DNA from: Ignavibacteria bacterium
GTDB lineage: Bacteria; Bacteroidota; Ignavibacteria; SZUA-365
Length of the DNA stretch: 64,000 nucleotides
Assembly (NCBI GenBank): GCA_016720835.1
Contig: JADKJW010000001.1
Location: 390,776 to 454,775 of the forward strand
Reading direction: 5' to 3'
A model generated the notes under the pieces. That model saw only the letters and a list, made by a program, of their open reading frames with translations. It had not been told where the DNA came from and made no database searches. Positions 4,726-62,341 of this stretch are shown here, piece by piece (positions within the stretch are counted from its first letter, which is position 1; every line of letters starts with the position of its first letter). A program made the position numbers and the translations under genes.

Positions 4726-5143
4726 GACGCCCTCCGGGCCCCGCGGGGGGTCTGCACGTACCGTCGAAAAATCCGCGAAGATGCACGAACGGGAACACCA
4801 TTTTCGGGCGCGTTCGAAGTTCGTCAGTTTCGCGATCGCCTTTGCTTCTCACGGAACGCTGTCATCGACGACGCTAATGGGGTGCCGTCCAATGAGTGAC
4901 TCAGGATGTCCCCGGCATCTGCATCAGCCTGCGAATACAGCAGCGGTGCGGGCGCCGTTCAGCAGGTCGACAGATCCTTCGCTGCGCTCAGGATGACCCG
5001 GGTGTTACGGATCGCGTCAAAACGCCATCGTCCCCGCGTCACCGCATCTCCGCGTCACCGTGTCACCGCGTCGCCATCTCACGCGTTTCTCGTATATTAA
5101 CGGTCCGTATGTACGATATTCATCACCCCAGCACCTCGATATC

Positions 5144-7561
5144 ATGCCCCTTCTCTCCCACGTCTCCATCGCCGCGATCCTGCTCTGCACCGCTCTCCTC
5201 GCCGGCACGGGCAACGCGCAGCACCGCGTCGGCGGCACGGTGAAGGACAAGGCGACGGGCCGTGGACTGGAGTTCGTGAACGTGTCGGTGCTGCAGGGAC
5301 CGGACAGCGCGGTGGTGACGGGCGCGGTGACGGGCAGGGGCGGCGCGTTCGACATCGCGGGACTGTCCGCGGGCGCGTACGTGTGCCGGTTCAGCCTGCT
5401 GGGCTATCGCACGGCGCACTCCGCGAGCTTCCGCGTCGATGCGCAGCATCCCGCCGTGGCGCTGGGCGTCGTCGCGCTCGAGGAGGCGCCGGTGACACTG
5501 GACGAAGTGGTGGTCACGACGGAGAAATTGTTGTATAACACCGCCATCGACCGGAAAGTATACAACGTGGGGCAGGACATCGCGGCGAAGACGGGCTCGG
5601 CGAGCGACGTGCTGCAGAACGTCCCGTCGGTGGAGGTGGACGTGGAGGGCAACGTGAGCCTGCGCGGCTCGTCCAACGTGCTCATCCTCATCAACGGCAA
5701 GAACTCGCCGCTCATGGGGCAGAACCGCGCCGAGGTGCTGCAGCAGTTGCCCGCCAGCGCGCTGGAGCGCATCGAAGTCATCACCAATCCATCGGCGAAG
5801 TACAAGCCGGACGGCAGCTCCGGCATCATCAACCTCGTGCTCAAGAAGAACACCGACCTCGGCTTCAACGGCTCGCTCGGCGCCAACGCCGGGAATCAGG
5901 ACCGGTACAACGCCACGCTGCGCATGAACTACAAGCCCGACGGCATCAACCTCTTCGGCAGCTACGCGGTGCGGCAGGACTCCCGCAACCGCATCAGCAG
6001 CGACGTCCGGGAAGAGCCCGCCACGGGGACCGTACCCGGCTCGTACCGGTGGGACTCCGAATCGAGCGCGCGTCCCCTCGCGCATATCGCCATGCTCGGC
6101 GCGGAGGCGGAACTGGGCGCGGGCACCAGCGCGGGCGTGACCGGCGATCTGTTCCGCAATGCGTTCGTGCGAAGCGACCGCAGTATCAAAACCTATCGCA
6201 ACATGAGCGGCTTGCTCACGGCGCAGAGCAGACGCGACCTCCGCGACAGCGAGTGGAGCAACGAGGCCGGCTTCACCGCCTTCGCGGAGCACGCCTTCGA
6301 CGGCGAGGAGCACACCCTGCGCGCGGAGTTCTCGGCGTCGCGCGAGAGCGAGGAGGAGGACAATCGCGCGAGCACGTCCTACGACACCCCGTTTGGGCCG
6401 CCCGCCTACGACAATGCGCTGCTGTACCAGGTGGACGCGCAGCAGCGCGCATCCCTCGACTACGGCGTTCCCCTTTCCGAAACATCGAAGCTCGAGGCGG
6501 GATACTCGGGCGATTTCACATCCAACGAATCAGAGTACACCGTCGAGGACTTCGATCCGGATCAGCAGACCTTCGTCCGCGACGCGACGAAGTCGTACGT
6601 CTTCCATTTCCGCGACGCGCAGCACGCCGTGTACGCCACATTCGAGCAGTCGCTGGGCCTGTTCGGTTTCATGGCGGGATTGCGCGCCGAGCAGACACTG
6701 GCGGAATCGAAGCTCGTCTCGCGCGACAGCAGCATCGAGAACTCGTATTTCAGCCTGTATCCGACCGTGCATCTCGCGTACACGCTCGGCGAGGAAACGG
6801 AGCTGCAGCTCAACTACAGCCGGCGCACCAACCGTCCCGACGGCGGCGATCTGAATCCCTTCCCCGAGTATCGCGATCCGAAGAACGTGTCCGCCGGCAA
6901 CGCGAAATTGTTGCCGGAATACATCAACTCGGTGGAAGTGGGCGCGAAGGCGCAGTGGGGCATGTTCTCCATCGTCCCGTCGCTGTATTACCGGCACACG
7001 TACAACCGCTTCACCTGGGTGACGACGGTGCTGCCGGATTCCACCTTTTTCTCGACGATGCAGAATCTCGAGAAGGATCAGTCCGCCGGCCTCGAAGTCA
7101 TCTTCTCCGCGAGCGCGAACGACGTGTTCAAGGCGCATGCGAGCGGGAATCTGTTCTATAATCAGATCGACGCGTCGAATCTCGGGTACGGTGCGGACAA
7201 GTCCATCGTGAGCTGGCGCGGCGCAGCAACCTGCAGCGTGCGTCCGTTCGAGGGAACCATGCTGCAGCTCAACGCGAATTTCCATTCCGCGCGTTTGACG
7301 CCGCAGGGCGAGACCTCGCCGAGTTACACCGTGAACCTCGGCGCGCGGCAGGAACTGTTCGACGGCAGACTCACCCTGGTGCTGACCGCGGGCGACATCT
7401 TCAAGAGCATGAAGCGGGAGACGCGTATCGACACGCCGGAGTTGCAGCAGACCGTCATCAACCGGCGCGACTCGCGGGTGCTGTTTTTCGGCATGACGTG
7501 GACGTTCGGTTCGCAGCCGAAGAAGAAGGACGACACGCTGAAGTACGACGAGGCGCTGTAA
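5144..7561 (+). CDS. outer-membrane beta-barrel / TonB-dependent-receptor-like protein with N-terminal carboxypeptidase-regulatory-like domain
   Basis: Signal peptide MPLLSHVSIAAILLCTALLAGTGNAQ. A CarbopepD_reg-like segment GTVKDKATGRGLEFVNVSV...AGAYVCRFSLLGYR is followed by a plug-like region (VVTTEK...VPSVEVD...NVSLRGSSNVLILINGK) and then a long beta-barrel-like region. Confidence 0.8.
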   Translation: MPLLSHVSIAAILLCTALLAGTGNAQHRVGGTVKDKATGRGLEFVNVSVLQGPDSAVVTGAVTGRGGAFDIAGLSAGAYVCRFSLLGYRTAHSASFRVDAQHPAVALGVVALEEAPVTLDEVVVTTEKLLYNTAIDRKVYNVGQDIAAKTGSASDVLQNVPSVEVDVEGNVSLRGSSNVLILINGKNSPLMGQNRAEVLQQLPASALERIEVITNPSAKYKPDGSSGIINLVLKKNTDLGFNGSLGANAGNQDRYNATLRMNYKPDGINLFGSYAVRQDSRNRISSDVREEPATGTVPGSYRWDSESSARPLAHIAMLGAEAELGAGTSAGVTGDLFRNAFVRSDRSIKTYRNMSGLLTAQSRRDLRDSEWSNEAGFTAFAEHAFDGEEHTLRAEFSASRESEEEDNRASTSYDTPFGPPAYDNALLYQVDAQQRASLDYGVPLSETSKLEAGYSGDFTSNESEYTVEDFDPDQQTFVRDATKSYVFHFRDAQHAVYATFEQSLGLFGFMAGLRAEQTLAESKLVSRDSSIENSYFSLYPTVHLAYTLGEETELQLNYSRRTNRPDGGDLNPFPEYRDPKNVSAGNAKLLPEYINSVEVGAKAQWGMFSIVPSLYYRHTYNRFTWVTTVLPDSTFFSTMQNLEKDQSAGLEVIFSASANDVFKAHASGNLFYNQIDASNLGYGADKSIVSWRGAATCSVRPFEGTMLQLNANFHSARLTPQGETSPSYTVNLGARQELFDGRLTLVLTAGDIFKSMKRETRIDTPELQQTVINRRDSRVLFFGMTWTFGSQPKKKDDTLKYDEAL

Positions 7562-7956: not shown

Positions 7957-10900
7957 ATGACACCTCCACGCCTTTGCATCGTGCTCGTCCTTGCGGCGGC
8001 CGCATTGCACCCGACCGCTGACGCCGTCGCGCAGTACGCGCTCGTGAATCAGTACGCCGTGTTCGACGGCTCGTCCTATCTCAGCGTTGCGTACACTCCG
8101 GCTTTCAACAGCGGCCTCTCGCAGGGCGCCGAGTTTGCCATCGACGCGTGGGTGTACCCGACGTCGTTCAGCGGGTATCCGACGGTGGTCGGGAACGACT
8201 ACAGCAGCGGATTCTGGCTGGGGTTCAATCTCTCGGGTTATCTCCGTTTCTACCCCAGCGGGGCTGGATACTACGAAAGCAGCACCGCGGTGCCACTCAA
8301 CCAGTGGACGCACATCGCCGTGTCGTACACGGTGGGAAAGGCCACGGTACGCTTCTTCATCAACGGCGCGCTCGACGCGACCATCACCGGCGTCGGCGTG
8401 ACCATCGGCATGGCGAACGGCGACCTGCGCATCGGCGCGGACAGGAACGGCAATACGCCGGCCTACTTCTTCAACGGGCGCATGGACGAGGTCCGCATCT
8501 GGAGCAGCATCGTCGACTTCGCGGCCGCGCCCGGCGAGCTGTACAGAACGCCGCACGAATTCGCCGGCGGACTTCACGGCAAGGCGCTGCTCGCCGCGTG
8601 GCGCCTCAACGGCGACGGCGTCGATTCGGCCTACGCGCAGAACGCCTCTCCCGTCGGCACCATGGCATACGGGAATGCGAGTCCGCCTCCGCATTACACG
8701 CGGATGTGCGCGGTGTTCGAAAACGACGGGAACACGGGGCACGATTTCTTCTCGGTGCCGAGTTCGGCTTCGCTTTCGATGACCGCGAATTACACGCTCG
8801 AGTGCTGGGCGTTCCTCGCGGGCAACGGCGCGTCCACCAGCTACCAGACCTTCCTCTCGAAGGGCATGTCGTGGAGTTCGTCGCTTCAGTACTGGCTCGG
8901 AGTGAACAAACAGAACGGCAGGCTGCGCTTTGCGCCGACCGGGGTCTTCGGCACGGCGATCGAGAGCGCCGATCCGCTGCCCGTCAATCAATGGGTGCAT
9001 GTCGCCGCCACGTTCAGCGCGTCCGGGAGCAACGGCACGGCGCGCCTGTACGTCAACGGACAGCCGAAGGGTTCCGCCTCCATCCCGAACAGCGGCACCG
9101 CCAACGCCTTCCCGCTCTTCATCGCGACCGCGGACCAGCAGGCCCTTCCCGCGACCGCGTACGCGCTGGCCGGGCGGCTCGACGAGGCTCGCATCTGGAG
9201 CGTTGCGCGCAGCGACGCGGAGATCGCGAACACGTGGCGCATGGAACTGAGCGGTCCGGTGAGCGGACTCTCCGCATCGTACCACTTCGACGGCGATGTC
9301 CTCGATCATTCCGCGGGCGGGAATCACGGAACCAATGCCAACAGTTCCTCGCTGGGTCTGTACTTCCGCGACGCATCGGATCTGCCCTCGCTCCCATCGC
9401 TGACCCTGACGGCCCCGAACGGCGGAGAGAACTGGCCCATCGGCTCGTCGCGCGCCGTGACATGGAACAGCGACGGGCTCGGAAGCGTGCGGCTCGAACT
9501 CTCGCGCGACGGCGGGGCCTCCTACACCGAAACCATCGCACCGTCCCTTTCCGCGCCGGCGGGATCGCATTCCTGGACCGTGACGGGTCCCGAAGGCGCC
9601 CTCTGCAGCTTCCGCGTGTCGAGCGCGACAGTGCCGTCGCTGTCGGATCAAAGCAACGCGGACTTCGCCATCACGCAGCCACCTCCCGTGCTTGCCGTCG
9701 CGCCGAACGCCCTCGCGTTCACTGCTGTGCAGAACGGCGCACTTCCATCCACGAAGACGCTGCACATCGCCAACACGGGCGGGGGGGCGCTGTCGTGGAC
9801 GGCATCGGCATCGTCTCTCTGGCTCAGCCTCACCCCGGGTTTCGGCGCTTTGAATTCTGATTCGACGATCGTCGGAATCGCCACGACCATGCTGCCCGCG
9901 GGCACCTTGCATGACACGATCGTCTTTTCGGGAAATGCGAACAATGTCCCTCTGCGCATTCCTGTCAGCCTGGACATTCTGGCAACGCCGCATATCGACA
10001 CCGATCCCGCATCCGTGCAGTTCAACGCGCAGCCGGGCGTCAATCCCCCGTCCAAAACCGTGCATGTGCTGAACAGCGGCACGGGCACGCTCGCATGGAC
10101 GGCGGCAAGCACGGTGCCGTGGCTGTCGGTCGCGCCGAACGCGGGCGGGCAGGGCGATTCGATCACGCTGTCCGTGTCCGTGGCCGCGCTTGCGCCGGGA
10201 ACGCACACCGGAGGAGTGACCATTGCAGGCAATGCGGACAACTCCCCGAAAGTGCTGCTCGTGCAGCTCGTGATATCCACGCAGGCGTACTACCCCGTGG
10301 CGGGGATGGCACGGTCCGGAAGCACGCCCCTTGCCGGCGTGCGCATCGACGTCGCGGGCGATTCCGTCCTTTCGCTGCTCACCGGAGCGGACGGCAGCTT
10401 CTCGATCGGAGGTCTTCGGGCCGGGGCGTACAGCGTGTCGGCGTCGAGTCCGTTCTACGCGTTCACGCCCGCATCCTATGCGCTGTCGCCGCTGAACGCG
10501 CCGCGGCTCGACCTCGTCTTCGACGCGGGTCCGAAGCAGGGCGCGGCCGTGGTGCAGTACAGGAAAGGATGGAACCTGCTGTCGCTGCCCGTCGATCCGG
10601 ACACGCGCGACATCACGGCGCTGTTCCCCGACGCATCGACGCCCGCGCTTGCGTACCGCTACTCGCAGGACAGCGGATACATCGCCGAGACGCAACTGCA
10701 TTTCGGAACGGGCTACTGGATCAAGTTCTCGAAGACAGACAGTGTGAGCATCGTCGGCTCGATGCGGGGTGATTTCCGCGTTCCGCTCACCGGCGGCATG
10801 GGCGGATGGAATCTGATCGGGGGGGCATCGGGAGCCGTGCCGATTGCCGCGATCGTGCAGAGTCCGCCCGGCTCGCTCGTCACCATCTATCAGTTCAACC

Positions 10901-11112
10901 CGGGCGAGGGGTACCGCCTGCCCGCGGGCGACATTCTTCGTCACGGCCTCGGCTACTTCGTGAAAGTGCGGAACGACGCGCTGTTCACGCTCATCTCATC
11001 CTTCACCGGGTCGCGCGAGCAGCTCGAAGATCTGCGCGCGCCGTCCTCATTGCCCGACGTGCTGGGGGGACCTCCCGCGGGGCCGGAGAGGGAAGTAGGG
11101 CATGGGAATTAG
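7957..11112 (+). CDS. large secreted LamG (concanavalin-A-like lectin) x2 / BACON / carboxypeptidase-regulatory-like protein with unassigned tandem C-terminal module
   Basis: Signal peptide MTPPRLCIVLVLAAAALHPTADAVAQ. There are two LamG_3-like blocks (...WVYPTSFSGYPTVVGND...RMDEVRIWS; ...LECWAFLAG...RLDEARIWS), a PNGGENW...VTWNS Ig-like domain and a BACON-like domain (ALAFTAVQNGALPSTKTLHIANTGGGALSWTA). A CarbopepD_reg-like segment follows, then the C-terminal GWNLLSLP...GYWIKF...GWNLIGG...GYFVKV module. It is paralogous to 57353..60202. Confidence 0.8.
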   Translation: MTPPRLCIVLVLAAAALHPTADAVAQYALVNQYAVFDGSSYLSVAYTPAFNSGLSQGAEFAIDAWVYPTSFSGYPTVVGNDYSSGFWLGFNLSGYLRFYPSGAGYYESSTAVPLNQWTHIAVSYTVGKATVRFFINGALDATITGVGVTIGMANGDLRIGADRNGNTPAYFFNGRMDEVRIWSSIVDFAAAPGELYRTPHEFAGGLHGKALLAAWRLNGDGVDSAYAQNASPVGTMAYGNASPPPHYTRMCAVFENDGNTGHDFFSVPSSASLSMTANYTLECWAFLAGNGASTSYQTFLSKGMSWSSSLQYWLGVNKQNGRLRFAPTGVFGTAIESADPLPVNQWVHVAATFSASGSNGTARLYVNGQPKGSASIPNSGTANAFPLFIATADQQALPATAYALAGRLDEARIWSVARSDAEIANTWRMELSGPVSGLSASYHFDGDVLDHSAGGNHGTNANSSSLGLYFRDASDLPSLPSLTLTAPNGGENWPIGSSRAVTWNSDGLGSVRLELSRDGGASYTETIAPSLSAPAGSHSWTVTGPEGALCSFRVSSATVPSLSDQSNADFAITQPPPVLAVAPNALAFTAVQNGALPSTKTLHIANTGGGALSWTASASSLWLSLTPGFGALNSDSTIVGIATTMLPAGTLHDTIVFSGNANNVPLRIPVSLDILATPHIDTDPASVQFNAQPGVNPPSKTVHVLNSGTGTLAWTAASTVPWLSVAPNAGGQGDSITLSVSVAALAPGTHTGGVTIAGNADNSPKVLLVQLVISTQAYYPVAGMARSGSTPLAGVRIDVAGDSVLSLLTGADGSFSIGGLRAGAYSVSASSPFYAFTPASYALSPLNAPRLDLVFDAGPKQGAAVVQYRKGWNLLSLPVDPDTRDITALFPDASTPALAYRYSQDSGYIAETQLHFGTGYWIKFSKTDSVSIVGSMRGDFRVPLTGGMGGWNLIGGASGAVPIAAIVQSPPGSLVTIYQFNPGEGYRLPAGDILRHGLGYFVKVRNDALFTLISSFTGSREQLEDLRAPSSLPDVLGGPPAGPEREVGHGN

Positions 11113-25819: not shown

Positions 25820-27042
25820 TCACCTGATCAACAGGATAGTGCCCGTTTCCGTCCTGCCGTCGGCGATGAAGCGGTACACACAGACACCTGTGGGGACTGA
25901 GGGCAGCGGCGTAAATTCCACTGCATGCGCGCCGGCTTCGTATTCACCCTCGGCAAGTGTGGCGATTTCTCTTCCGAGCAGAGAATACACGCGGAGAGAC
26001 GCCCGCATTCTCGATGGGAGTGTGAACGTGAACGTGCTGCTGTGGCTGAATGGATTCGGGTAGTTCTGCGCCAGTGTGGGCGTCTCCGAGAGGACAGGCT
26101 GGGCGTCGATAAGTTCGGAGAGCGGACGGCGCCACAGCGAGGTGTAGGTACCTGCGAAAATATACTGAGGCGTAATGGCAATCGCGCGAATCGTGTTCGT
26201 TGGGATGTTGTCTGTAATGTTTTTCCAATTCCTTCCCAAGTCTGTGGAGAGGAAGAGACCACTGTGATAGGTACCGGCAAAGAGGTTGGAACCTGCCACG
26301 GCCAGGCAACCGATGAGATTGTCTGTGATGCCGTTGGAAGCGGCTTCCCAAGAGGTGTCGGTTTCGGACAACATGTACACCGCGTCACCAGTGCTGGCAA
26401 AAACACGGCCGGCGCACGATGCGAGTGCCGTCATGACTTGTGCAGATCCTTCCAGCCCGGAAGGAATGGACTTCCAACTCCTGCCGGAATCGAGCGAACG
26501 GTATACGCCTTCACCTTGGGTACCCAGGTATATTTCGATACTCGTACTGAGAATAGAATAGTAATCCATGTATACGGCTGAGCGCAATATCCCTGAGTCG
26601 GCACGTACCCACGTGATACCGAAATCGGGTGACCGCCAGACGCCCTTGCGATGTGTGCCCGCCACCATCCCCCAGGAATCCACCAACAGGCAACTTGTTT
26701 GTTCTTCGAATTGCTTCGTGTCCGCTCCACCCATGTCTTGCCAAAATCACTGGTGCGGTACAGCCCATCACCCATCGCGGCATAGAGTGTATCGTGATAC
26801 AGCGCCATGGTACTGACACCTTTCTTCATTGTTGAATCAGGTGGCAGCCAGGATTGTCCCTCATCGGGAGATTGAATGATACCTTTGGCCTCCTGGTAGC
26901 CGTACACTCGGGCGCCATGAGCGATTACATACGTTGTCTTGTTGCTGTCGCATAGCAGCCATTGGGCTTGCATGAGTTGTATACATGCGCAAAGAAGTAG
27001 TGTCGAAATGAAAGACGTTTTCATCGCAGAGTCGAGCTTCAC
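25820..27042 (-). pseudogene. BNR/Ycf48-like beta-propeller T9SS cargo protein, split by an apparent frameshift near 26735
   Basis: ORF 26431..27042 has the signal peptide MKTSFISTLLLCACIQLMQAQ and TSDFGKTW. ORF 25820..26734, in another frame, continues with SPDFGITW, SLDSGRSW, STDLGRNW and ends with the T9SS CTD AQNYPNPFSHSSTFTFTLPSRMRASLRVYSLLGREIATL...GVCVYRFIADGRTETGTILLIR. The second piece has no signal peptide of its own. Paralogous to 1330..2616. Confidence 0.55.
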
Positions 27043-51033: not shown

Positions 51034-54000
51034 GTGGCTATGAACAAGCGATTCTCATTCGCGCTGCTCGCGCTGCTGTTCTGTTCGACCGCGGCGCTCG
51101 CGCAGGACGCACTCCCGACACCCCGCTTCGTGCCTCCCGAAATTCGCGGGAACGACGCGCAGGCCTTCTACAAGGACATGGCGATCATCGAAACGAACTG
51201 TTCCGACTGGACGGAAGTTCGCGCGTTGTGGAAACAGCTCACGGAAAAGGGCGCGCTCATCTCGGTGATCGCCTCGCCGAAGCGCTGGATCGGCTGGGTC
51301 CCGACCGAATCGAAGGATGCCGTCGGCAGCGCCCGCTTGAACAGCGCGACGGGCTCCCTCGGCGTGACCTCGATCTCGTATACTGCCGCTGAATTTCGGA
51401 CCAAACACTCCGGCATGCAGCTGCAATCGACCAGCGAAGAGGAATCGGCCCTCGTGGAGTATCTGGAACACGCGAAGCACACGCGGACGCCGGAGGAACT
51501 GCAGCGCATCGAGGAGCGCACGCGCGAACTCGATCTCATTGCGCCGACCGTTCAGCAACCGCCGTGCGTCTTCACCAATCCCGAGCCGATCCCCCTGCCC
51601 GAAACGGCCTCATCGCCGAAGGGACCCTCCACGCAGGGCGGCGCCAATCCGTCGATCACTCGCAGATCGACACCGCAGGGACTGATCGTCCACACGAGCG
51701 TGTTCCCGGAGAGCCAGAGCGGGACAGGATCCTGGAACTGGGACATGACCGTGTACAACCGCTACCGCAATCTCCATCTCGACGCGATGCACTACTGGAC
51801 GGCGCAGGCTTCCAAATACGGCAAGAGCGCGACCCTGATCTGGCGCCTCTACGGCCCCACCCACTGGTGTTCGCAGGTATCCGGCGAACCGACGGTCATC
51901 GGGGAACACACGTTTATTCCGGTCATCCTCAACAACATCTATCCACCCGACGTCTGGGACATCCTCTTTGGACGCATCCCGAACTGGAACGGAAGCAACG
52001 GCCTGGACCGCGGCGACGCGTGGGGCTGGTACTACAACAATAAAATCCGGGACTATTTCGGGGCGGACCAGGCAATTTGCGCCTTCATCGCGTGGAAAGG
52101 CACCCCGAACGAGGGGATCTGGCCGCACGCCCGCTCCGTGACATGGGGGAACGGCGACCACGAAGGCATCTACTACGCGATGGATGTGCGGTACTGGCAG
52201 GCCGGGCTCGACCCCTATGCCATGCCCAGCCGCAATGTCTGCGCGCATGAAATCGGCCACCTCTGGGGCTCGCCCGACGAGTACCGCACGGACAATTGCA
52301 CGTGGTCATACCGTGGAGCCGAAAACATCAACTGCCAAACAACCCGGCCGACGGCCCCGGGTCGCCCGGGCTACAAGATCGTCGGTTTCGACGCGATGAT
52401 GGTCGGGAATTATCTCTCGGGTTCGAGTTCCGTCATGCCCGTGCACATGGGCCTGCTCACTGCGGGACAGCGGACGCCGTTGCGCTGCTTCACATCGCAG
52501 CCGGCCAACATTCCCATCACGCTCCACATTTGCGACAACAGTTCGCATGCGCTGTCCACACGCACGCTGACGGGTCCGACCTGTGTGCCGATGGAATGGG
52601 ACTTCTGCTATAAAACCGAAGTCCCGCTCACACGCAGCATTTCCGGGTCGACGTGGTACTTCGACCATTTCGAAGTGAAGCGCGAGAACGGCGCGACCTC
52701 GAACATCGACGACTACGCGAACAACATGCCGTCCTACGCGTTCACCTCGACGCAGGCGAATCCCGTCACCGACGTCAAGGCGGTGTACACGAATACCCCG
52801 CCCGATTTCAATACTGCCAACACCTCGATCACCGCATGGCTCGCACCGGCGGGCAATTCCGCGACGCCAAATCCCGCGGTCGCACTGCGTTGGCGAAACA
52901 AGTACGACATGCAGAAGGTCGTGACGAAAATCGAATGGGAGCGCACTGCAGGGACATGGGTGGAAGTGCAGCCCGTGCTCGGACCGTTCCCGGTCTCGAT
53001 CGGGCAGTACACCGGAGTGATCATCACCGCGCTCCCGCTTGCGGGAGGAGGTACCACGGCCGTGGCGGCAAACACGCAGTACCGCTTCCGCATTGTGGGC
53101 ATCTTCAACACGATCCGCGGCACCAACAGCGTGGTCGCCGAAATCCGCACGCGCCCGTCCTCACCGACGGATACGGTCTATTGCAGGGACGCGCAGGAGC
53201 CGAATTCCGCGGCTTCGCCGAAGGTCCTCACCTCGTCCGGCCCCGGCATGGCGCCGTATCTCTTCAAGGCGGCCTGTCCGATCTCGATGATCACCGGCGA
53301 GTTCACCTGGTTCAGACCCAAATACGACTACTATCGCGTGACGGCCATCAACCTCAGCAACGTGACGGGCGGCGAGCGTCTCACCCTGGTGCTGCACGTG
53401 AGCGACGGCTCGAAATTCAAACCGGTGTTCCGCGCGAAAATGGCGGGCAGTTCCACGTACATCAATTCGTCGAGCGGCGGCCCGGGGTATTACATCCTGT
53501 CGCTGTCGGTGGACGGGACGTACGACATCAGCGTCGAACCGGAGATCAGCTCCTTCATCAGTTATCGCCTCATCGAACCGTCGACCGGCGACTTCGGGTT
53601 CGGCGAATATACCATCAGCGTCGATCGGACCTACAACAAGCCGCCGCTCGTCGCATTCTGTCCGACATGCGTCAAGGTCAGCATCCTCCAGCCTATCAGC
53701 GGCCTGTTGATCTCGAAAGCGCCGGGCGATCTGTTCGACAAGGGCGTCGATAAAAACACGCCGGGACTCTTCGATGTGCTGTTCCACCCCCCGGCGGGCT
53801 TCATCTTCGACGGCTGGGATCTCCCCAAGCCCGAGATCCTGGAAGATCCGAAAGCGAACCCGACCAAATTCAAGTACGGCCCGAATACGCCGCCGGGAGA
53901 ATACGAACTCGGCGCGAAATTGAGACCGGTGGCGCAGGGTCAGAACGAACTCGTGGTCATCTTCCCGCAGGGACCCGACGGTCCCTTCGAGGCCCGCACG

Positions 54001-56148
54001 CTGCATTCGACTGGCGCGGTCGTGAACGTGACGGCGCCCGCGAATCCGAACTACCTCTTCCTCGGGTGGAGTCACGACACCGCCGCGACGACGAATCCTC
54101 TTCCCGTCACGATGTGGCGCAGCAAGAAACTCATCGCCACGTGGAGAGAGAAGCCGTGCCAGCCGGAACCGATGGTGAAGTGGGTGCATCGCGCAACGCT
54201 GACCAACGCGAAGAACGGCAGCGTCACCATCGACTACGGCATGGATCCGAGCGCGGGTGACGGGCTCGAAGCGGGGCAGGTGGACCTTCCTCCCATTCCG
54301 CCTCCGGGACCGTTCGATATCCGTTTCATCAACATCACCGGTTCGCAGGGAAGCATCAGCGATCTGCGCGCGATACAGCAGTCATTCATCTATCTGCTGC
54401 GCGTCCAGACCGGAACCACCGGCACCGCGCCCGTGCAGATGACCTGGGGCGCGCCGCCGGTTTCACCGAACGCGACGTTCTTCCTGTACGTGCAGGGCGA
54501 ACCCGCGCCGTTCAACATGCGCACGACATCGAGTTACACCTTTGCCGCGGAAGGCACGTACAATTGCCGCATCGAAGTGAAGATGCCGGAGTGCCCGCCG
54601 AAATCGAAGGAACCCGAAGTGGTCATCGTTCCGACGCGCAACGATCCGACGCGCTTCCCCTGCGTGGAACTGGCGATGCAGTTCCGCGACCGCAAGACCG
54701 ACATGCTCTATCCGCTGTACAACCCGTATCAATTCCATCTCTTCGAGAAGAACGACGATGGCGGGTGGGGCCCGATCCGCATCACCGAAATCGTGCAGCT
54801 CCCGACCATGACGCTCTTCCGCATTTGTACGGACGAAGGGAGCCCGAAACCGAATCGCGAGATCGTCATCGTCAACGACGATCAGGATCCGGACACGAAG
54901 AAGGACACGATCACGGTCAATATCCCCGTGCCGAATCCCACCGGGACAGGCACTCCTGTCCGCTTCGTGCAGCAGCATAGCGGAGACTGGGAGCTTGTCT
55001 CGATTCCGCTCGAGGTCAAGTACCCTGAATCGAACGTGATCTTCTCCGATCCCGCGACGCTTCTCTTCCGGTTCGATACGAACACCGGATATTACTTCTC
55101 CGTGCCGAAGATGACGTTCGGTGAAGGCTACTGGTTGAAGACGAACGATAAAGCCACGGTCTACTACGGGATGGAGAAGCTCATCTTCAACTGGGACACG
55201 CTCATCGGTATCGGGCAGCCCTACGGCTACGGCTGGAATCTCATCGGCGCGGTGTCGAAACCGCTCGCCGTGGCCGCGATCCAGCAGACACCCGCGGGCG
55301 GTCTCAAGGCCATCTTCGGCTACAATCCCGCGTCGGGCTACGTCGTTCCGACCATCGTCAATCCCGGACAGGGCTTCTGGGTCCGTGTCGACCCGAACAC
55401 GAAACTCAAGATGCAGGCGCCCGGCGTCGCCGGACCGCCGACCGTCACAGCATACGCGAAGACCGCGGCCAGTCTGAACGTCATTGCCAACCTGGTGTTC
55501 ACCACTGCCAGGAATGAGCGCCAGGAACTGCCGGTGACGACCAGCCGCATCTCCGCGGCCGATGTCGACAACCTGCTCCTTCCGCCGCTTCCCTACGGGT
55601 CGGGACTCGATGTCCGCACCGAGGCGGGAACGCGGTACATTCCGTTCGGCATGACCGGCATCGATATTCGCAGCCAGATCGATGTGAAGGTGACGTTCGA
55701 ACCTGTCGTCGCGACGCAGGACCGCTATCAGTTGCTCGACGAGAATGACGCCGTTCTGGCGGAATTCAGCGGCGCGCAGCCGGTGACGGTCACCGTCCCC
55801 GCATCGAACGCGCACCGGATCTTTCTGAAGACCATGACGTCCGGAATATCCGGCAACTTCGCCCTCGACCAGAACTGGCCGAATCCGTTCTCGCCGGCGC
55901 AGCACGAAGCCACCACCATCGCCGTCACGTTCGGGACGCCGTCGCATGCGCGCCTCGCCGTGTACGACGTGATGGGAAGGCAGGTGCGGCTCCTGCTCGA
56001 TCAGGACCTCCCGGCGGGCATGAAACATCTGCGCTGGGATGGTCGCGACGGGCGCGGGGACCTGCTTCCTGCGGGCACCTACCTGCTGCGCCTGCAGGCT
56101 GCCGAGGGCACGATCACGAAATCGATGACCATCACTCACGCCAAGTGA
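51034..56148 (+). CDS. 1704-aa secreted multidomain protein. N-terminal zinc-metallopeptidase-like domain (HEIGHLWGSPDEY), multiple Ig/FN3-like domains, shared GWNLIG tandem module, C-terminal T9SS sorting domain
   Basis: Signal peptide MAMNKRFSFALLALLFCSTAALAQ. CAHEIGHLWGSPDEY (HExxHxxGxxDEY, reminiscent of M64-type peptidases). Module GDWELVSIPL...GYWLKT...GWNLIGAVS...GFWVRV. CTD NWPNPFSPAQHEATTIAVTFGTPSHARLAVYDVMGRQVRLLLD...GTYLLRLQA. Confidence 0.85.
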   Translation: MAMNKRFSFALLALLFCSTAALAQDALPTPRFVPPEIRGNDAQAFYKDMAIIETNCSDWTEVRALWKQLTEKGALISVIASPKRWIGWVPTESKDAVGSARLNSATGSLGVTSISYTAAEFRTKHSGMQLQSTSEEESALVEYLEHAKHTRTPEELQRIEERTRELDLIAPTVQQPPCVFTNPEPIPLPETASSPKGPSTQGGANPSITRRSTPQGLIVHTSVFPESQSGTGSWNWDMTVYNRYRNLHLDAMHYWTAQASKYGKSATLIWRLYGPTHWCSQVSGEPTVIGEHTFIPVILNNIYPPDVWDILFGRIPNWNGSNGLDRGDAWGWYYNNKIRDYFGADQAICAFIAWKGTPNEGIWPHARSVTWGNGDHEGIYYAMDVRYWQAGLDPYAMPSRNVCAHEIGHLWGSPDEYRTDNCTWSYRGAENINCQTTRPTAPGRPGYKIVGFDAMMVGNYLSGSSSVMPVHMGLLTAGQRTPLRCFTSQPANIPITLHICDNSSHALSTRTLTGPTCVPMEWDFCYKTEVPLTRSISGSTWYFDHFEVKRENGATSNIDDYANNMPSYAFTSTQANPVTDVKAVYTNTPPDFNTANTSITAWLAPAGNSATPNPAVALRWRNKYDMQKVVTKIEWERTAGTWVEVQPVLGPFPVSIGQYTGVIITALPLAGGGTTAVAANTQYRFRIVGIFNTIRGTNSVVAEIRTRPSSPTDTVYCRDAQEPNSAASPKVLTSSGPGMAPYLFKAACPISMITGEFTWFRPKYDYYRVTAINLSNVTGGERLTLVLHVSDGSKFKPVFRAKMAGSSTYINSSSGGPGYYILSLSVDGTYDISVEPEISSFISYRLIEPSTGDFGFGEYTISVDRTYNKPPLVAFCPTCVKVSILQPISGLLISKAPGDLFDKGVDKNTPGLFDVLFHPPAGFIFDGWDLPKPEILEDPKANPTKFKYGPNTPPGEYELGAKLRPVAQGQNELVVIFPQGPDGPFEARTLHSTGAVVNVTAPANPNYLFLGWSHDTAATTNPLPVTMWRSKKLIATWREKPCQPEPMVKWVHRATLTNAKNGSVTIDYGMDPSAGDGLEAGQVDLPPIPPPGPFDIRFINITGSQGSISDLRAIQQSFIYLLRVQTGTTGTAPVQMTWGAPPVSPNATFFLYVQGEPAPFNMRTTSSYTFAAEGTYNCRIEVKMPECPPKSKEPEVVIVPTRNDPTRFPCVELAMQFRDRKTDMLYPLYNPYQFHLFEKNDDGGWGPIRITEIVQLPTMTLFRICTDEGSPKPNREIVIVNDDQDPDTKKDTITVNIPVPNPTGTGTPVRFVQQHSGDWELVSIPLEVKYPESNVIFSDPATLLFRFDTNTGYYFSVPKMTFGEGYWLKTNDKATVYYGMEKLIFNWDTLIGIGQPYGYGWNLIGAVSKPLAVAAIQQTPAGGLKAIFGYNPASGYVVPTIVNPGQGFWVRVDPNTKLKMQAPGVAGPPTVTAYAKTAASLNVIANLVFTTARNERQELPVTTSRISAADVDNLLLPPLPYGSGLDVRTEAGTRYIPFGMTGIDIRSQIDVKVTFEPVVATQDRYQLLDENDAVLAEFSGAQPVTVTVPASNAHRIFLKTMTSGISGNFALDQNWPNPFSPAQHEATTIAVTFGTPSHARLAVYDVMGRQVRLLLDQDLPAGMKHLRWDGRDGRGDLLPAGTYLLRLQAAEGTITKSMTITHAK

Positions 56149-56162
56149 CAGGAGGAAACACC

Positions 56163-57272
56163 ATGAAACGCACACATTTCTTTCTCGTCGCTTTCGCCGT
56201 TTCCTTCTTCTTCGCGATTCCGCACGGTATCGCCCAGGAATTGCGCGGCGTGATGCTCGGCCTCACGGTCTCAAACTTCAACAACCGCAGCCAGAATCTT
56301 TCGATCGGCATTATCGAAGGCGCGTCAAAGGGCATCGATCAGCAGCTCGGAGAACTGGAGCTTCCCCCGTTTCCTCCGCAGGAGATCTTTGACGCGCGCA
56401 TCGCGAGCACGCCCGGAATGTCCTCGCTCGGCACGGGTTCGCTCTCGGACTATCGCCCGGCGAGCCCGTCGACCACCTCATACACCGAGACCTACACCGT
56501 CGCGTACCAGGGAGGCCTGGGCGCGACGAAGGTCAAGCTCGAATGGCAGTTTCCGCTCCCCGGACGCGTGACGAAACTCACCGTCGACGGCACGGATGTG
56601 ACGGCCCTGGCGTCCATCGATATTCCGTTTCCGGGGGGACAGGCGACGGTCGTCGTGACGTACAATTACGCCCCGCTCTCGTTCACAGCGCTTCCGACGT
56701 CGCTCTCCTTCGATGCGAACAACCGCGATGCGCTTCCCTCGAAGCCGCTCGAGATCATCCCCCAGGGCGACAGTCAGGCACAGTGGATGATCAGCTCCGA
56801 TGCCGACTGGCTCAGCCTCGATGCGGGATCGGGCGAAGGCAGACAGACGATCACCGTGGAGGTCAGAACCGGGATCATCCCGACAGGAGTGTACACGGGC
56901 ATCATCACCGTGCGCTCGCTCTTCGATCCGGCCTTCCTCGACATTCCGGTCACGCTGAACTACACGCTCGGCGCGAACGGGGCGCCGCTTCCGGAGGGCA
57001 TGGCGTTGACGCAGAATTTCCCGAATCCCGCTTCGGGGAGCACCGCGATCAGCGTCTCGCTCGGCGTGCAGGCCGCCGTCTCGTCCCCTCCAATCCTGAA
57101 GGTGACCGACATGGCCGGCCGCGTCGTCCTCGACCTCTCCTCCCGGCTGCGCCGTGATCCGGGGCCGCAGACGCTGGCGGTGGACATCGCGTTCCTGCCC
57201 GCGGGTTCATATACGTACACGCTCAGCGGCGCGGGGTATGAAGTCTCGCGCAGCATGATCGTGGTGAAATAA
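56163..57272 (+). CDS. secreted BACON-domain protein with C-terminal T9SS sorting domain
   Basis: Signal peptide MKRTHFFLVAFAVSFFFAIPHGIAQ. BACON-like PTSLSFDANNRDALPSKPLEIIPQGDSQAQWMISSDADWLSLDAGSG. CTD TQNFPNPASGSTAISVSL...KVTDMAGRVVLDL...GSYTYTLSGAG. The start codon overlaps the upstream gene's stop region. Confidence 0.75.
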   Translation: MKRTHFFLVAFAVSFFFAIPHGIAQELRGVMLGLTVSNFNNRSQNLSIGIIEGASKGIDQQLGELELPPFPPQEIFDARIASTPGMSSLGTGSLSDYRPASPSTTSYTETYTVAYQGGLGATKVKLEWQFPLPGRVTKLTVDGTDVTALASIDIPFPGGQATVVVTYNYAPLSFTALPTSLSFDANNRDALPSKPLEIIPQGDSQAQWMISSDADWLSLDAGSGEGRQTITVEVRTGIIPTGVYTGIITVRSLFDPAFLDIPVTLNYTLGANGAPLPEGMALTQNFPNPASGSTAISVSLGVQAAVSSPPILKVTDMAGRVVLDLSSRLRRDPGPQTLAVDIAFLPAGSYTYTLSGAGYEVSRSMIVVK

Positions 57273-57352: not shown

Positions 57353-60202
57353 ATGAAACGCATTGTCGGCGTTCTCCTGCTCTTCATCGGATGTTTCGCG
57401 CCGCGTGACGCGAGCGCGCAATATTCAGCGGTCAACGAGGCGCTGTCGCTCACCGGTGCGGGGTATGTCTCCATCCCGTGGGCAAACGCATTCAACGGGC
57501 AGCTGAACCAGATCGGGATGTTCAGCATCGATGCCTGGGTCTATCCGAGTTCGCTCTCCGGATACATGACCGTTGTCGGCAACGACTACGGTGTCGGGTA
57601 CTGGCTCGGCGTCACTCCGACCGGCAAGATCCGTTTCTACCCGCGAGGCGGCCTGTACTACGACAGCCCGGGGTCGATCCCCAGCGGACAATGGTCGCAC
57701 ATTGCCGACTCGTTCAACGCGCGGAAGCAGACTCTCTCCTTCTACATCAACGGGGCGCTCAACGGTTCCGTCGGTGTTCCGCAGGGCGGTGTCGGAAGCG
57801 TCACCGGCGGGGATCTCCGTATCGGCGCGGATCGATCGGGCGGATCACCGGCGTACTACTGGAGCGGCATGATCGATGAAGTGCGACTCTGGACTGAGGA
57901 GATCAATTTCTCGTCGGCAGTCGGGCTGCTGTATCGCGTACCGCATGCGGTCTACAACGGACGCTACGGCAAGTACCTCGTTGCCGGCTGGCGCCTGAAC
58001 GGAAGTGAGACGGGAATCGACAATCAATTCAACGGGACTCTCACCGGCACGAGCAGCTACGCGAGCGCCCCCATGCCGCCGCATTACGCCCGCATCTGCG
58101 CGTCCTTCTCGAACCTGCAACCGCTCGCCGCCGCGGGAACCGACGATTACTTCGCGATCCCCAGTTCCTCGGGAAACGCGCTCGTCCAGAACTACACTCT
58201 CGAGTGCTGGGTGAAGCCCACGTCGACCGGCGGAAGTCCGACCTATCAGACCTTCATCTCGAAGGGATCGCAGTATGCGGGTTCGTGGTCGTACTGGGTC
58301 GGGCTCAACAAGGCGAACAGCAAGGTGCGCTTCGTCCCCAACGGCGATTTCACCGACGGTCTCGAATCGTCCACCACCATGCCGCTGAACCAATGGACGC
58401 ATGTCACCGCCCGGTATCTGGTTTCGGGCAACACGCGCACCGCGACGCTCTTCTTCAATGATGTCGTCGTCGGAACGAAATCCTATTCCAGAGACGCGAC
58501 CCCGAATCAGAACGCGGTGCTGATCGGCCGCGCGGACTATGCAGGCACGCCCGTGAACGGCTACGGATTGTCGGGCTTCCTCGACGAAGTGCGCATCTGG
58601 AACACGGCGCGCAGCAACACGGAAATCATCAACGCCTACCGCATGGAATTGACCGGTCCGGTGACGAATCTCACCTCCTCGTACCACTTCGACGGCGATG
58701 TCCTCGACGCGTCCGGAAACGGAAACAACGGCGCGCATACGCTGGCCGCATCCGCGGACGTGACCTTCAACGACGCAAGCGATCTCCCCGCCATCCCGAC
58801 CGTCCAAGTGCTGCTGCCGAACGGCGGCGAAACCTGGTTCACCGGCAGCACACGCTCGGTGCAGTGGGCTTCCAGCGGCCTGCAAAACGTGCGCATCGAG
58901 TTGTCGCGCGACGGCGGGCAGACCTATGGCGAAGTGCTCACCCCCTCCACGCCCGCGGCGACAGGCGCATTCAATTGGCTGGTGAGCGGTCCCGTGACCG
59001 CCACCGCACGCGTCCGTGTCACCACGACGACGCCGACCTCCCTCTCGGATGAAAGCGACAAGAACTTCAGTATCGAGGACCCGCCGCCGACGCTCAGCGC
59101 GACGCCGTCGTCGCTGACTTTCGCCGCGGCGCAAGGCGGAGTGCTCCCGCCATCGCAGCGCATCCGCCTCAAGAATACGGGAGGCGGGACCCTGAGCTGG
59201 AGCGCCAGTCCCGGCGCAACGGCCTGGCTCAGCCTCAACCCGACGGCGGGAACCGCGAACACGGACTCCTTCGATGTGTCCATTCTTGACTCGAACCTTC
59301 CGGAAAATTCGTATAGCGCCGTCATGACCATCACCGGAAATTTCTCGAACTCGCCGGTCACGATACCCGTCGTGTACCGCGTGACGAAGAAACTCATCTT
59401 CTCGATCTCCGGACGCGTCACGATCGGATCGACGCCGCTCGCGAATATCGTGATCCCGATATTCGGCGACGTGAACACCTCCGCAACAACGGACATCAAC
59501 GGGTACTATTCCGCCACGGGACTGCCGCAAGGCGACTATGCGCTCGCGCCTTCCAATCCCTTCTACGATTTCACTCCCGCCTCGCGCAATTACGCGCCGC
59601 TGAACAGCAATGTCACGGACGCGGACTTCAACGGACGGTCGAAGCGAGGCAGGGCGATGCTGCGGTATCGCGAAGGGTGGAACCTCATGTCGCTTCCGCT
59701 CAATCCCGACATCACCGATCTGGGGTTGCTCCTTCCGGCCGCGAAGCTGCCGGCGTATTTGTTCGATCCCGCAAAGGGGTACGTCGAAACGACGACGGTC
59801 GGTTCCAACAAGATGGTGTTCTGGGTCAACTGCTCGCGGACCGACAGCACGGAGATCAGCGGTGAACTGCTCCCCGCCGTGCAGCATTCCGTCTCCTCCT
59901 CCTACGGTGGATGGAATCTGATCGGGGCGCCGAGCGGTCCCGCCTCCGTCGCGGCGATGGAACAGTTTCCCTCCGGTCTTGCGGTCGCGATCTATGAATA
60001 CGATCCGCTGTTCGGATATCTTCCACCCATCGACGGCCAATTCCGTCCGGGCCGCGGGTACTTCCTGAAGGCGGCCGGAGACGGAAGCGTCCGTATCACG
60101 GCGGAGAGCGCCTTCGCACCGATCGTCTTCAGGCCGTCGCTGCGTTTCCCCGGTGCTGCAGTGCTGTGGGATCCGCCGCCGCCCCCGCCCCCGTCGCGAT
60201 GA
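57353..60202 (+). CDS. large secreted LamG x2 / BACON / carboxypeptidase-regulatory-like protein with unassigned tandem C-terminal module (paralog of 7957..11112)
   Basis: Signal peptide MKRIVGVLLLFIGCFAPRDASAQ. Collinear with and about half identical to 7957..11112 across the LamG blocks (IDAWVYPSSLSGYMTVVGNDY..., LECWVKPT...LDEVRIWN), PNGGETW...VQWAS, BACON (LTFAAAQGGVLPPSQRIRLKNTGGGTLSWSA) and the C-terminal GWNLMSLP...GWNLIGAPS...GYFLKA module. Confidence 0.85.
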   Translation: MKRIVGVLLLFIGCFAPRDASAQYSAVNEALSLTGAGYVSIPWANAFNGQLNQIGMFSIDAWVYPSSLSGYMTVVGNDYGVGYWLGVTPTGKIRFYPRGGLYYDSPGSIPSGQWSHIADSFNARKQTLSFYINGALNGSVGVPQGGVGSVTGGDLRIGADRSGGSPAYYWSGMIDEVRLWTEEINFSSAVGLLYRVPHAVYNGRYGKYLVAGWRLNGSETGIDNQFNGTLTGTSSYASAPMPPHYARICASFSNLQPLAAAGTDDYFAIPSSSGNALVQNYTLECWVKPTSTGGSPTYQTFISKGSQYAGSWSYWVGLNKANSKVRFVPNGDFTDGLESSTTMPLNQWTHVTARYLVSGNTRTATLFFNDVVVGTKSYSRDATPNQNAVLIGRADYAGTPVNGYGLSGFLDEVRIWNTARSNTEIINAYRMELTGPVTNLTSSYHFDGDVLDASGNGNNGAHTLAASADVTFNDASDLPAIPTVQVLLPNGGETWFTGSTRSVQWASSGLQNVRIELSRDGGQTYGEVLTPSTPAATGAFNWLVSGPVTATARVRVTTTTPTSLSDESDKNFSIEDPPPTLSATPSSLTFAAAQGGVLPPSQRIRLKNTGGGTLSWSASPGATAWLSLNPTAGTANTDSFDVSILDSNLPENSYSAVMTITGNFSNSPVTIPVVYRVTKKLIFSISGRVTIGSTPLANIVIPIFGDVNTSATTDINGYYSATGLPQGDYALAPSNPFYDFTPASRNYAPLNSNVTDADFNGRSKRGRAMLRYREGWNLMSLPLNPDITDLGLLLPAAKLPAYLFDPAKGYVETTTVGSNKMVFWVNCSRTDSTEISGELLPAVQHSVSSSYGGWNLIGAPSGPASVAAMEQFPSGLAVAIYEYDPLFGYLPPIDGQFRPGRGYFLKAAGDGSVRITAESAFAPIVFRPSLRFPGAAVLWDPPPPPPPSR

Positions 60203-60231
60203 TGCGCGTGCCGTCATGCGGCGTATCAACG

Positions 60232-60268
60232 AAAAAACCCGCCCAGGCAGATGCCGGGGCGGGTTTTT
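60232..60268. terminator. bidirectional rho-independent terminator (AAAAAA-ACCCGCCC...GGGCGGGT-TTTTT)
   Basis: 8-bp GC stem flanked by an A-run and a T-run, between the convergent 57353..60202 (+) and 60286..60531 (-) genes. Confidence 0.65.
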
Positions 60269-60285
60269 CATGATCCGGAAAGAAT

Positions 60286-60531
60286 CTATTTGCTGATCTG
60301 ATAGACGATCTTGCGGACGGTATCGAACTGCAGATACGGATGCATCTCGCGGATACGGTCGATGGCATCGCCTGCGCTCATGGACTGACGCATGTCTTTG
60401 AACATTCGGCGAATCTGGTAATCCCGGATTGCCTTTTCGCTGAACAGTTTGTGACGCTCGAGCTCCAGAAAAGTCTGGTCGTCAATCAAATCGCGCAGCG
60501 GGTTGTCGGATGAAATCAGGTCGTTAAGCAT
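60286..60531 (-). CDS. small hypothetical protein (possible HTH-containing), lower GC than surroundings
   Basis: 81-aa ORF MLNDLISSDNPLRDLIDDQTFLELERHKLF...SMSAGDAIDRIREMHPYLQFDTVRKIVYQISK. GC is visibly lower (about 50%) than the roughly 65-70% background. An AT-rich spacer lies upstream and a terminator downstream. Confidence 0.5.
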   Translation of the reverse strand: MLNDLISSDNPLRDLIDDQTFLELERHKLFSEKAIRDYQIRRMFKDMRQSMSAGDAIDRIREMHPYLQFDTVRKIVYQISK

Positions 60532-60838: not shown

Positions 60839-62341
60839 TCACGTGGCGATGGTTTTTTGCACTGCTTCCGGCGAGTCATATCCCAATGAGGTCACCCATT
60901 CGAACACGGTGTCTGAAATGGTGCCGCTGAAATGGTCATCACTGCCCGCAAACGAACAGAGCTCGTCGAAAAGCGCATCCCATCCGGGATAGTCGAGCCG
61001 GTCGGAGACGATGTTGTGAATCAGCGCCGTGAAGACGCCATTTCGCTCTGTGACTATCCGTTCCAGTTCCAGTATGCGCTCGCGCGCCGCGTCCACGCTG
61101 CATCCTCGATAGTGCTGCAATGTGCCATCCATGACGAGCAGAGGTACTTCCCATATCGGGAGTACACGGCTCCCGTCGTGATCGAAGGCGAGGAATGGAT
61201 GGCAGCTTCCGTTTCGAAAGCCTTCTCGCTCCGCGAAGGCGAGGCTTGCATCGACGCGGAAACCGGCGTCAATCTGCGCATTCCACGTGTCCGGCGCGCG
61301 AAAACGGAGGAAATGCTGCCGCACCGCGCTCGGCACGATTCCGGTCGCGCGCGACAAGGCTGCCCTTTCGCGCGCGATCATCGCGGGATCCAGGTAGCTC
61401 TGAAAGCTCGGATGCAGCCCGATCTCATGCCCGTCCGCCCGGAGGCTCTCGTACACCCCTCGCAGGTACGCCGAATCAACCGCGTACCCGGCGTCCCGTT
61501 TATCGCGGCCTCCGCTTTTGAAAAACCATGTCGCGCGCACTCCGAACTCGCGCTCCGCCGCGAGCAGCTTCTCGATGGACGCCTTCGGCGGACCCTGCTT
61601 CGAACAGACCGCCCGCAGGTACCCGAAGAAGCGCCTGACGCGCCTGCCGAGCGGCATCCGCGCCTGATTGAGAAGCAGGAGACGCACCATCTCGCGATAC
61701 AGGAACGCCGGTCGCATGTACGTGAGGTGGTCGATGTCGTGGGTGATGCAGACCGCGCTGGAAGCCCCGGCGAAGCGACCGGCATCACGCAGACGGAAAC
61801 CCGCGAGTCGAAGGGCGTCGCCGAGACACGCGGCGATGTCGGCGACAACCGGGGAATCGAGGAATCCGAGCGCGCCCAGCAGTGTCCCGTCCGCACGCGT
61901 CCTGTCGAATTGATCCCGGGGTCCGCCGCTCCACTCTCCGTGCAGAGAGAGGAAATAGAACGCGTCGGCAATACAGTCCGTCGAGGGAAGCCCCGGTGAT
62001 CGCGGAAGTGCCGGGTCGACCGGGAAAAGAGACAGGATCGAGCGCCCTGCCGCCGGGAGAAGCCGCGCATCAGCAGGCGCGTACGCGTTTTTCTCAAGGA
62101 GGAAGGATTGCGCGGAGCGTGATGCAGGCACGTGAACCGCGATGTCGCCGGCGGCATCCGTCGGAGATGCGCTCGCGGAATAGAGGACATGCGGGCCTCC
62201 GGGGGCTCCGGCGTAAAAGCGGGGACGAAATCCTGCGATCAGTCCGAGCATGCAGAATGTGTAGCGCGCCCGAAGCGCGAATGCGGGCGCGCAATCGAGC
62301 ACGACGGGGACGTCAGCGTCCGTCGTCTCCGTCATGTGCAT
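60839..62341 (-). CDS. polysaccharide-deacetylase-like (CE4-like) family protein, hypothetical
   Basis: ...AVCITHDIDHLTYMRP..., ...RATWFFKSGG..., ...HEIGLHPS... These resemble the divergent polysaccharide deacetylase / DUF-type hydrolase pattern. The exact family is uncertain. Confidence 0.55.
   Translation of the reverse strand: MHMTETTDADVPVVLDCAPAFALRARYTFCMLGLIAGFRPRFYAGAPGGPHVLYSASASPTDAAGDIAVHVPASRSAQSFLLEKNAYAPADARLLPAAGRSILSLFPVDPALPRSPGLPSTDCIADAFYFLSLHGEWSGGPRDQFDRTRADGTLLGALGFLDSPVVADIAACLGDALRLAGFRLRDAGRFAGASSAVCITHDIDHLTYMRPAFLYREMVRLLLLNQARMPLGRRVRRFFGYLRAVCSKQGPPKASIEKLLAAEREFGVRATWFFKSGGRDKRDAGYAVDSAYLRGVYESLRADGHEIGLHPSFQSYLDPAMIARERAALSRATGIVPSAVRQHFLRFRAPDTWNAQIDAGFRVDASLAFAEREGFRNGSCHPFLAFDHDGSRVLPIWEVPLLVMDGTLQHYRGCSVDAARERILELERIVTERNGVFTALIHNIVSDRLDYPGWDALFDELCSFAGSDDHFSGTISDTVFEWVTSLGYDSPEAVQKTIAT

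Follow-up and report, generated by a model that had tools for sequence, protein, structure and literature searches.

A stretch of 64,000 nucleotides from an Ignavibacteria bacterium (contig JADKJW010000001.1, positions 390,776 to 454,775; hereafter, the window) encodes three large secreted proteins, here called A, B, and C, each of which carries a copy of the same module of ~150 amino acids (aa) at or near its C-terminal end. We found that this module is a real, internally duplicated, autonomous, and non-catalytic β domain. Furthermore, it is a promiscuous accessory domain that has been shuffled onto unrelated secreted and surface passenger proteins, and the family that it forms is absent from Pfam and NCBIfam, which makes it well suited both to a new entry in a curated library and to work on its structure. 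Concerning its role, we lean toward the view that the module is a widespread, autonomous, non-catalytic all-β extracellular domain, usually the last globular domain of the protein, which most likely serves for binding or anchoring. The outcome stays at the level of a domain of unknown function rather than a new mechanism.

The three copies lie on the forward strand. Copy A occupies 10555..10995 (147 aa; unit 1 at ~10555-10770 and unit 2 at ~10780-10995), copy B occupies 54970..55416 (149 aa; unit 1 at 54970-55179 and unit 2 at 55213-55416), and copy C occupies 59660..60100 (147 aa; unit 1 at 59660-59875 and unit 2 at 59882-60100). The initial annotation of this DNA, made from the sequence alone, had placed copy A exactly, but its "about 54980..55420" for copy B was slightly off and out of frame. 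In pairwise BLASTP comparisons, module A aligned with module C at 39% identity (E 1e-33) and with module B at 33% identity (E 1e-22), and modules B and C aligned at 27% identity (E 5e-15). All three segments, therefore, aligned significantly with one another, as the proposal of a shared module had implied. A six-frame scan with a profile hidden Markov model (HMM) showed that the window contains exactly three copies. The motifs originally described for the two units were also seen in the alignment, but the first "FGxGYW" is degraded to "SNKMVFW" in copy C. Chance similarity or low complexity as the source of the likeness was ruled out by these E-values together with the confident predicted fold described below.

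Next, we consider the two-unit build. Each ~70-aa half of the module follows the pattern GWN(L/M)(I/V)S.P ... F.Y...GY ... L.PG.GYW(V/L)K. Profiles of unit 1 and unit 2, prepared as the two halves of an alignment of 170 family modules, matched each other over 61 columns with an hhalign probability of 98.8% (E 1e-16). When HMMs of the single units were applied to the 165 best-scoring family proteins, the units were found in the order U1-U2 only: 154 proteins had one pair, nine had two pairs, and one had five pairs. Since the units were seen solely as ordered U1-U2 pairs, the module represents one domain with an internal duplication. The early description as a two-unit module was thus right about a discrete domain with an internal repeat, but the label "tandem repeat" was misleading, because the pairs are fixed. 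A variable-number tandem repeat was ruled out for the same reason; the unit number does not vary freely (pairs only, n = 165). An ancient internal duplication of a ~70-aa unit would have given rise to the present module of ~140-150 aa.

Structure prediction of the lone module, which had been suggested as a check, gave a confident and compact result. As calculated by AlphaFold2 from an input of 12 aligned sequences, module copy A forms one compact all-β domain of ~12 short strands (predicted local distance difference test score, pLDDT, 94.8; predicted template modeling score, pTM, 0.87). The invariant or near-invariant residues of the module are W, G, Y, P, N, and S, and they are located on the predicted strands. 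Among the conserved module positions, no conserved acidic, His, or Cys constellation hinting at catalysis was observed. An outer-membrane β-barrel anchor was also considered and was ruled out, as the strands are just 3-8 residues long and the module occurs in Patescibacteria.

The module had at first been left without a family, and it fits no described one in Pfam, NCBIfam, PDB sequence profiles, or PDB folds. The modules of A, B, and C showed no match in Pfam-A even at E ≤ 10 and no match in NCBIfam even at E ≤ 1, and no Pfam family recurred when 33 diverse family modules were compared with Pfam at E ≤ 1. Sequence-profile searches of the PDB with the module returned nothing meaningful, and Foldseek comparison of the module model with the PDB revealed no similar fold (best E 0.19; TM ≤ 0.26). 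Pfam matches to LamG, BACON, FlgD_ig, PKD, FN3, and CarboxypepD_reg were found elsewhere in A, B, and C but never overlapping the modules, and none of these six families recurred among the 33 family modules. Similarly, literature searches on the module motif strings, on domains of T9SS (type IX secretion system) and of Ignavibacteria, and on "choice-of-anchor" found no relevant paper.

Several known systems nevertheless resemble the module in part. The sole recurrent curated signal was NCBIfam NF041539 ("choice-of-anchor R"), which appeared below threshold in 3 of the 33 family modules. Its best match scored 20.8 bits (cutoff 30; E 3e-4) and aligned module residues 22-89 with profile positions 68-132 of 155, whereas A, B, and C themselves gave no match to it at E ≤ 1. 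The model length of 155 is similar to that of the module; moreover, domains of the choice-of-anchor class are accessory domains standing beside alternative C-terminal anchoring or sorting signals, and the module behaves alike. However, the match stays below the cutoff and covers only part of the module, running from the last portion of unit 1 into the first portion of unit 2. We take this match as a lead for a possible remote homology and not as membership. The GW modules of Listeria and SH3b-type repeats (PF13457) provide an analogy only: they also consist of ~70-80-aa units with Gly-Trp and are located C-terminally on surface proteins, where GW modules confer non-covalent surface attachment. 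The module, however, showed no match to Pfam GW or SH3 HMMs and no SH3-like fold. The other closest systems are small β-sandwich or jelly-roll carbohydrate-binding modules (CBMs) and cupin-like barrels (e.g., CBM6 2cdo, PpnP 7eyp, and RmlC 1nxm).

We then turn to the distribution of the family. When 1.84 billion cluster representatives (clusters at 50% identity) were searched exhaustively with HMMER, the module was matched in 19,188 of them at E ≤ 1e-3; the number fell to 8,324 at E ≤ 1e-10 and to 1,499 at E ≤ 1e-30. A profile search for homologues had been recommended at the outset, and the matches come from several phyla. Word-indexed homology searches gave 18 and 78 matches, mostly fragments of <300 aa, and badly underestimate the family; a tblastn search against plasmids gave no match. 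The named taxa bearing the module were Ignavibacteriota/Ignavibacteriales, Marinimicrobia, Cloacimonadota, and Patescibacteria. The NCBI names of family members come only from PKD domains or from the T9SS C-terminal domain (CTD), and the members from Ignavibacteriota/Ignavibacteriales are annotated just as "T9SS type A sorting domain-containing protein". In the 66 full-length matches, 142 different Pfam families co-occurred with the module, including PKD, FG-GAP, BNR/sortilin, LamG, S8 proteases, phosphatases, β-helix, and Fib_succ_major, and 36 of these 66 proteins contained Por_Secre_tail. The arrangement also varied: in some proteins, the module directly follows the signal peptide, and multi-copy proteins occur, such as a 3,424-aa protein of Cloacimonadota (P0020), in which five modules stand among PKD arrays together with a LamG domain and a dockerin. 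In a 3,341-aa protein of Patescibacteria (P0030), the module is at the extreme C-terminus.

As one more accessory domain found on secreted proteins, the module is ordinary in kind; it is, however, very abundant and lacks a detailed description. This constitutes an annotation gap of at least ~19,000 protein clusters (50% identity) for which neither a Pfam or NCBIfam model nor a solved structural relative exists, and the proteins concerned now bear the label "hypothetical" or take their name from the sorting tail alone. A definition of the family would improve surface-proteome annotation in Ignavibacteriota, Marinimicrobia, Cloacimonadota, and some Patescibacteria, and the module offers a clean, confidently predicted target for structure determination.

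The position of the module within its proteins was analyzed for the 165 best-scoring matches, some of which are gene fragments. Most often, the module was the last globular domain, located either at the protein end or before an ELPPxPP linker, with or without a β-sandwich, and a type-A CTD. In 76 of the 165 proteins, the end was reached ≤60 aa after the module, many of them within 0-4 aa, and the tail was ≤10 aa in 46. A T9SS CTD motif was found downstream of the module in 61 of the 165, at a distance of either ~40-47 aa or ~120-200 aa. In the short form, a linker of the type "...NRIxIVPxxELPPxPP..." lies between the module and the CTD, and in the long form, an extra conserved domain, here called X, is present ("...GRIxItDaxGxxxxLY...YELPPxPPxGxFDVRF...YPxxI...").

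Protein B shows this long form. Its module is followed by 243 aa, comprising the X domain at 55417..55875 on the forward strand, and, at 55876..56145 on the same strand, a T9SS type-A CTD. The X domain, a conserved β-sandwich of ~150 aa with an "LPPxPxGxxDVR" motif, thus separates the two (the "long cassette"). This CTD was recognized by TIGR04183 (27.6 bits; cutoff 23; aa 1615-1696) and FlgD_ig (30.8 bits) and includes the "QNWPNPF" motif. In type-A T9SS cargo, the C-terminal CTD directs outer-membrane export (PMC5837995, citing Lasica et al. 2017 and Veith et al. 2013). The initial annotation had stated that the module of B is followed by a separate T9SS CTD; the CTD is real, but it does not adjoin the module, as the ~150-aa X domain lies between them.

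With the module at the extreme C-terminus in the 46 proteins just mentioned and the family centered on T9SS-bearing lineages, the module might itself act as a signal for secretion or sorting at the C-terminus, such as a T9SS CTD of a type not yet described. The module and the type-A CTD indeed share an all-β character, a place in the C-terminal region, and the same lineages, and they co-occur (36/66). However, the type-A CTD consists of the last ~70-80 aa at the extreme C-terminus, whereas the module, at 147 aa, does not share this placement. In B and many relatives, it precedes the CTD; it has twice the length of a CTD, contains an internal repeat, and is found at places other than the C-terminus. 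Downstream of the module, a canonical type-A CTD is present in B and in no fewer than 61 of the 165 relatives, and other proteins have the module N-terminally or in as many as five internal copies. The three modules gave no match to type-A CTD models (TIGR04183/PF18962) at E ≤ 10 in Pfam and E ≤ 1 in NCBIfam, and type-B CTD models (TIGR04131 and PF13585 CHU_C) gave no match on the window proteins. Furthermore, the module is present in a Patescibacteria protein, and Patescibacteria are not known to have an outer membrane or a T9SS. The downstream CTDs, the N-terminal and internal placements, and the occurrence in Patescibacteria largely exclude a sorting-signal role, which we rate as very improbable. 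The earlier statement that the module differs from the T9SS sorting signal and is no variant of it was thus borne out.

Proteins A and C end without a CTD. After its module, A has a tail of 38 aa at 10996..11109 on the forward strand (SSFTGSREQLEDLRAPSSLPDVLGGPPAGPEREVGHGN), which, by eye, resembles the Pro-rich linker of the family and contains no CTD; the tail of C, 33 aa at 60101..60199 on the forward strand (AESAFAPIVFRPSLRFPGAAVLWDPPPPPPPSR), likewise resembles by eye the linker "NRIxIVPxxELPPxPP" and stops right after the poly-Pro segment. The C-terminal ends of C (...APIVFRPS...LWDPPPPPPPSR) and A (...DVLGGPPAGPERE...) look, by eye, like the short linker cut after poly-Pro. HMM scans agreed with the initial view that A and C, the two LamG proteins, have no CTD, and no CTD remnant, frameshifted or decayed, was found downstream of either stop codon in any frame. 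CTD-less relatives that have the immunoglobulin (Ig)-like domain of A and short Pro/Arg-rich tails occur elsewhere; the Ig-like domain type of A and C was also found on the CTD-less module proteins P0057, P0086, P0092, and P0143. Since such relatives exist elsewhere, the architecture without a CTD recurs, and it is unlikely to stem from an error of assembly.

These placements suggest how the module may be displayed. The T9SS removes the CTD of its type-A cargo and then attaches the new C-terminus to surface lipopolysaccharide. In B-type proteins, the module, together with X, would sit at the cell-proximal base of the passenger after CTD removal. In A- and C-type proteins, which end after the linker, the module would be the terminal domain. 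In both settings, it would position or retain the passenger by binding a cell-envelope component or an external ligand. We consider such a role in binding or anchoring, which would be analogous to that of choice-of-anchor domains, CBMs, or Listeria GW modules, to be the most likely, and, if true, it has a bearing on the surface display of adhesins and enzymes in these little-studied bacteria.

Several observations weigh against this binding or anchoring role. The aromatic residues that are conserved could do no more than build the core of the module. The partner domains are not enriched for glycoside hydrolases, which makes a module of surface proteins in general more likely than a classical CBM that targets polysaccharides. 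The position statistics derive only from the best-scoring matches, fragments included, and the fold comparison covered the PDB, so a structural relative of known function could have been missed. Finally, the variable placement, either N-terminal or as the five interspersed copies in P0020, fits a plain spacer equally well. A purely structural spacer or pedestal, that is, a rigid β domain that merely keeps passenger domains away from the surface or from one another and has no ligand, is accordingly the main rival, and we regard it as doubtful but worth serious consideration. The conservation of W, G, Y, and P on predicted strands is typical of a fold-determining core, and the partners are mostly Ig-, PKD-, or FN3-rich surface proteins, both of which would suit a spacer, as would the varied positions and the copies interspersed among PKD arrays. 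However, spacers are usually Ig/FN3-type domains in variable-number arrays, whereas the module is nearly always single. Its strong preference for the C-terminal or pre-CTD position also argues against a spacer, and the strong family-wide conservation of the 140-aa unit suggests more than spacing.

We now describe the genes that carry the module and their neighbors, all of which are annotated by NCBI as "hypothetical protein" (metagenome-assembled genome, Ignavibacteria bacterium) in the case of A, B, C, and D. Gene A (7957..11112, forward strand; 1051 aa; MBL0173954.1), seen both as an open reading frame (ORF) and as an NCBI gene call, encodes, in order, a signal peptide, two LamG_3 domains, a Kre9/KNH-like Ig domain, two BACON-like domains, a CarboxypepD_reg-like domain, the module, and the Pro-rich tail. 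Gene C (57353..60202, forward strand; 949 aa; MBL0173992.1) is a full-length paralog of A, being 46% identical to it across 677 aa and 38% identical across 334 aa, and encodes a signal peptide, two LamG_3 domains, Ig, BACON-like, and CarboxypepD_reg-like domains, the module, and a Pro-rich tail. Gene B (51040..56148, forward strand; 1702 aa; MBL0173990.1), also supported by ORF and NCBI gene call, encodes a signal peptide, a HEIGH zincin or weak M6-like region, Flg_new_2, the module, the X domain, and the T9SS type-A CTD. All three ORFs are present as first listed, but the start then given for B, 51034, is a GTG two codons upstream of NCBI's 51040. Between B and C lies gene D (56163..57272, forward strand; 369 aa; MBL0173991.1; NCBI gene call), which has no module; it has an N-terminal X-like segment (match at nt 56220-56450) and a T9SS CTD (PF18962, E 2.3e-5), whose 25 bits are slightly under Pfam's 27-bit cutoff.

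B, D, and C form a tight same-strand cluster, in which an upstream GTG ORF of D (56145) overlaps the B stop and D and C are spaced by 80 bp. Within this cluster, B and D have a CTD and C has none, and the B-D-C trio was found again on ENA contigs at ≥90% identity. This leaves some room for the alternative that the module is for docking or oligomerization, such that A, B, and C would associate (or, more generally, proteins without a CTD and proteins with one) and the CTD-less proteins would be retained on, or exported with, a T9SS-anchored partner. The clustering of CTD-less C with CTD-bearing B and D, the recurrence of the trio, and the pseudo-symmetric two-unit build, which is compatible with self-association, would all agree with docking. 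However, gene A is unlinked to B and C, and many proteins of the family have just one module; the family is also present in Patescibacteria. Moreover, the B module shows no specific relationship to the A and C modules: among ~170 family modules, it ranked only 87th with A as the query and 71st with C as the query, and the relative nearest to it is a T9SS protein of the long-cassette type found elsewhere. As unrelated family members are just as close to the B module as A and C are, there is no support for a special link among these three. The initial annotation had spoken of three paralogous proteins that the module could link; A and C are indeed paralogs, but B has the module alone in common with them, and the module is found in 19,188 cluster representatives. 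We, therefore, consider docking improbable in general. Its most specific form, a new-fold, self- or hetero-associating docking domain that holds CTD-less A and C on T9SS-anchored B, or co-exports them, is quite improbable, although, if docking were true, it would amount to a cohesin/dockerin-like surface-assembly system in Ignavibacteriota.

Further features were observed in the module-bearing proteins. The signal peptides of A, B, D, and C have, by eye, likely cleavage sites at Ala|Gln (AVA|QY, ALA|QD, GIA|QE, and ASA|QY, respectively), in agreement with the "Q-rule" followed by signal peptidase I substrates of Bacteroidetes (PMC5837995). The N-terminus of gene C also has a lipobox-like LFIGC. 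In B, a HEIGH zincin motif (VCAHEIGHLWGSPDEY) is located at aa ~400-420 (window 52200-52260), and the zincin region gave weak M6/M12-type matches (TIGR03296, 25.8 bits against a cutoff of 110.8; Reprolysin_5, E 0.08); B is probably a divergent secreted metalloprotease. The Ig-like domain of A and C has the pattern "PNGGE.W..GS...V.W", lies in A at aa ~487-584 (window ~9385-9675), and matches Kre9_KNH weakly (E 0.01). This Ig region of A showed 38-39% identity to contigs of Candidatus Eisenbacteria (loci L001 and L002); comparison of full-length A with genome contigs gave only these two Eisenbacteria matches, both to the Ig region. Comparison of C with metagenome contigs gave LamG relatives only, none with the module.

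Other observations concern the surrounding DNA. Directly upstream of A, 5060-7561 on the forward strand encodes an 833-aa outer-membrane protein of the TonB-dependent-receptor type, composed of CarboxypepD_reg, Plug, and OMP_b-brl_3 (E 5e-88). Downstream of C, a ~640-bp gap (60203-60838) separates C from the convergent 60839..62341 on the reverse strand; it contains no ORF, its G+C content is 46-53% compared to ~62% in the flanks, and it gave no Rfam match at the gathering threshold. Finally, a 308-aa ORF at 25823-26746 on the reverse strand has a canonical T9SS CTD motif (AQNYPNPFS) 81 aa before its end, indicating that several T9SS cargo genes are present within the window.

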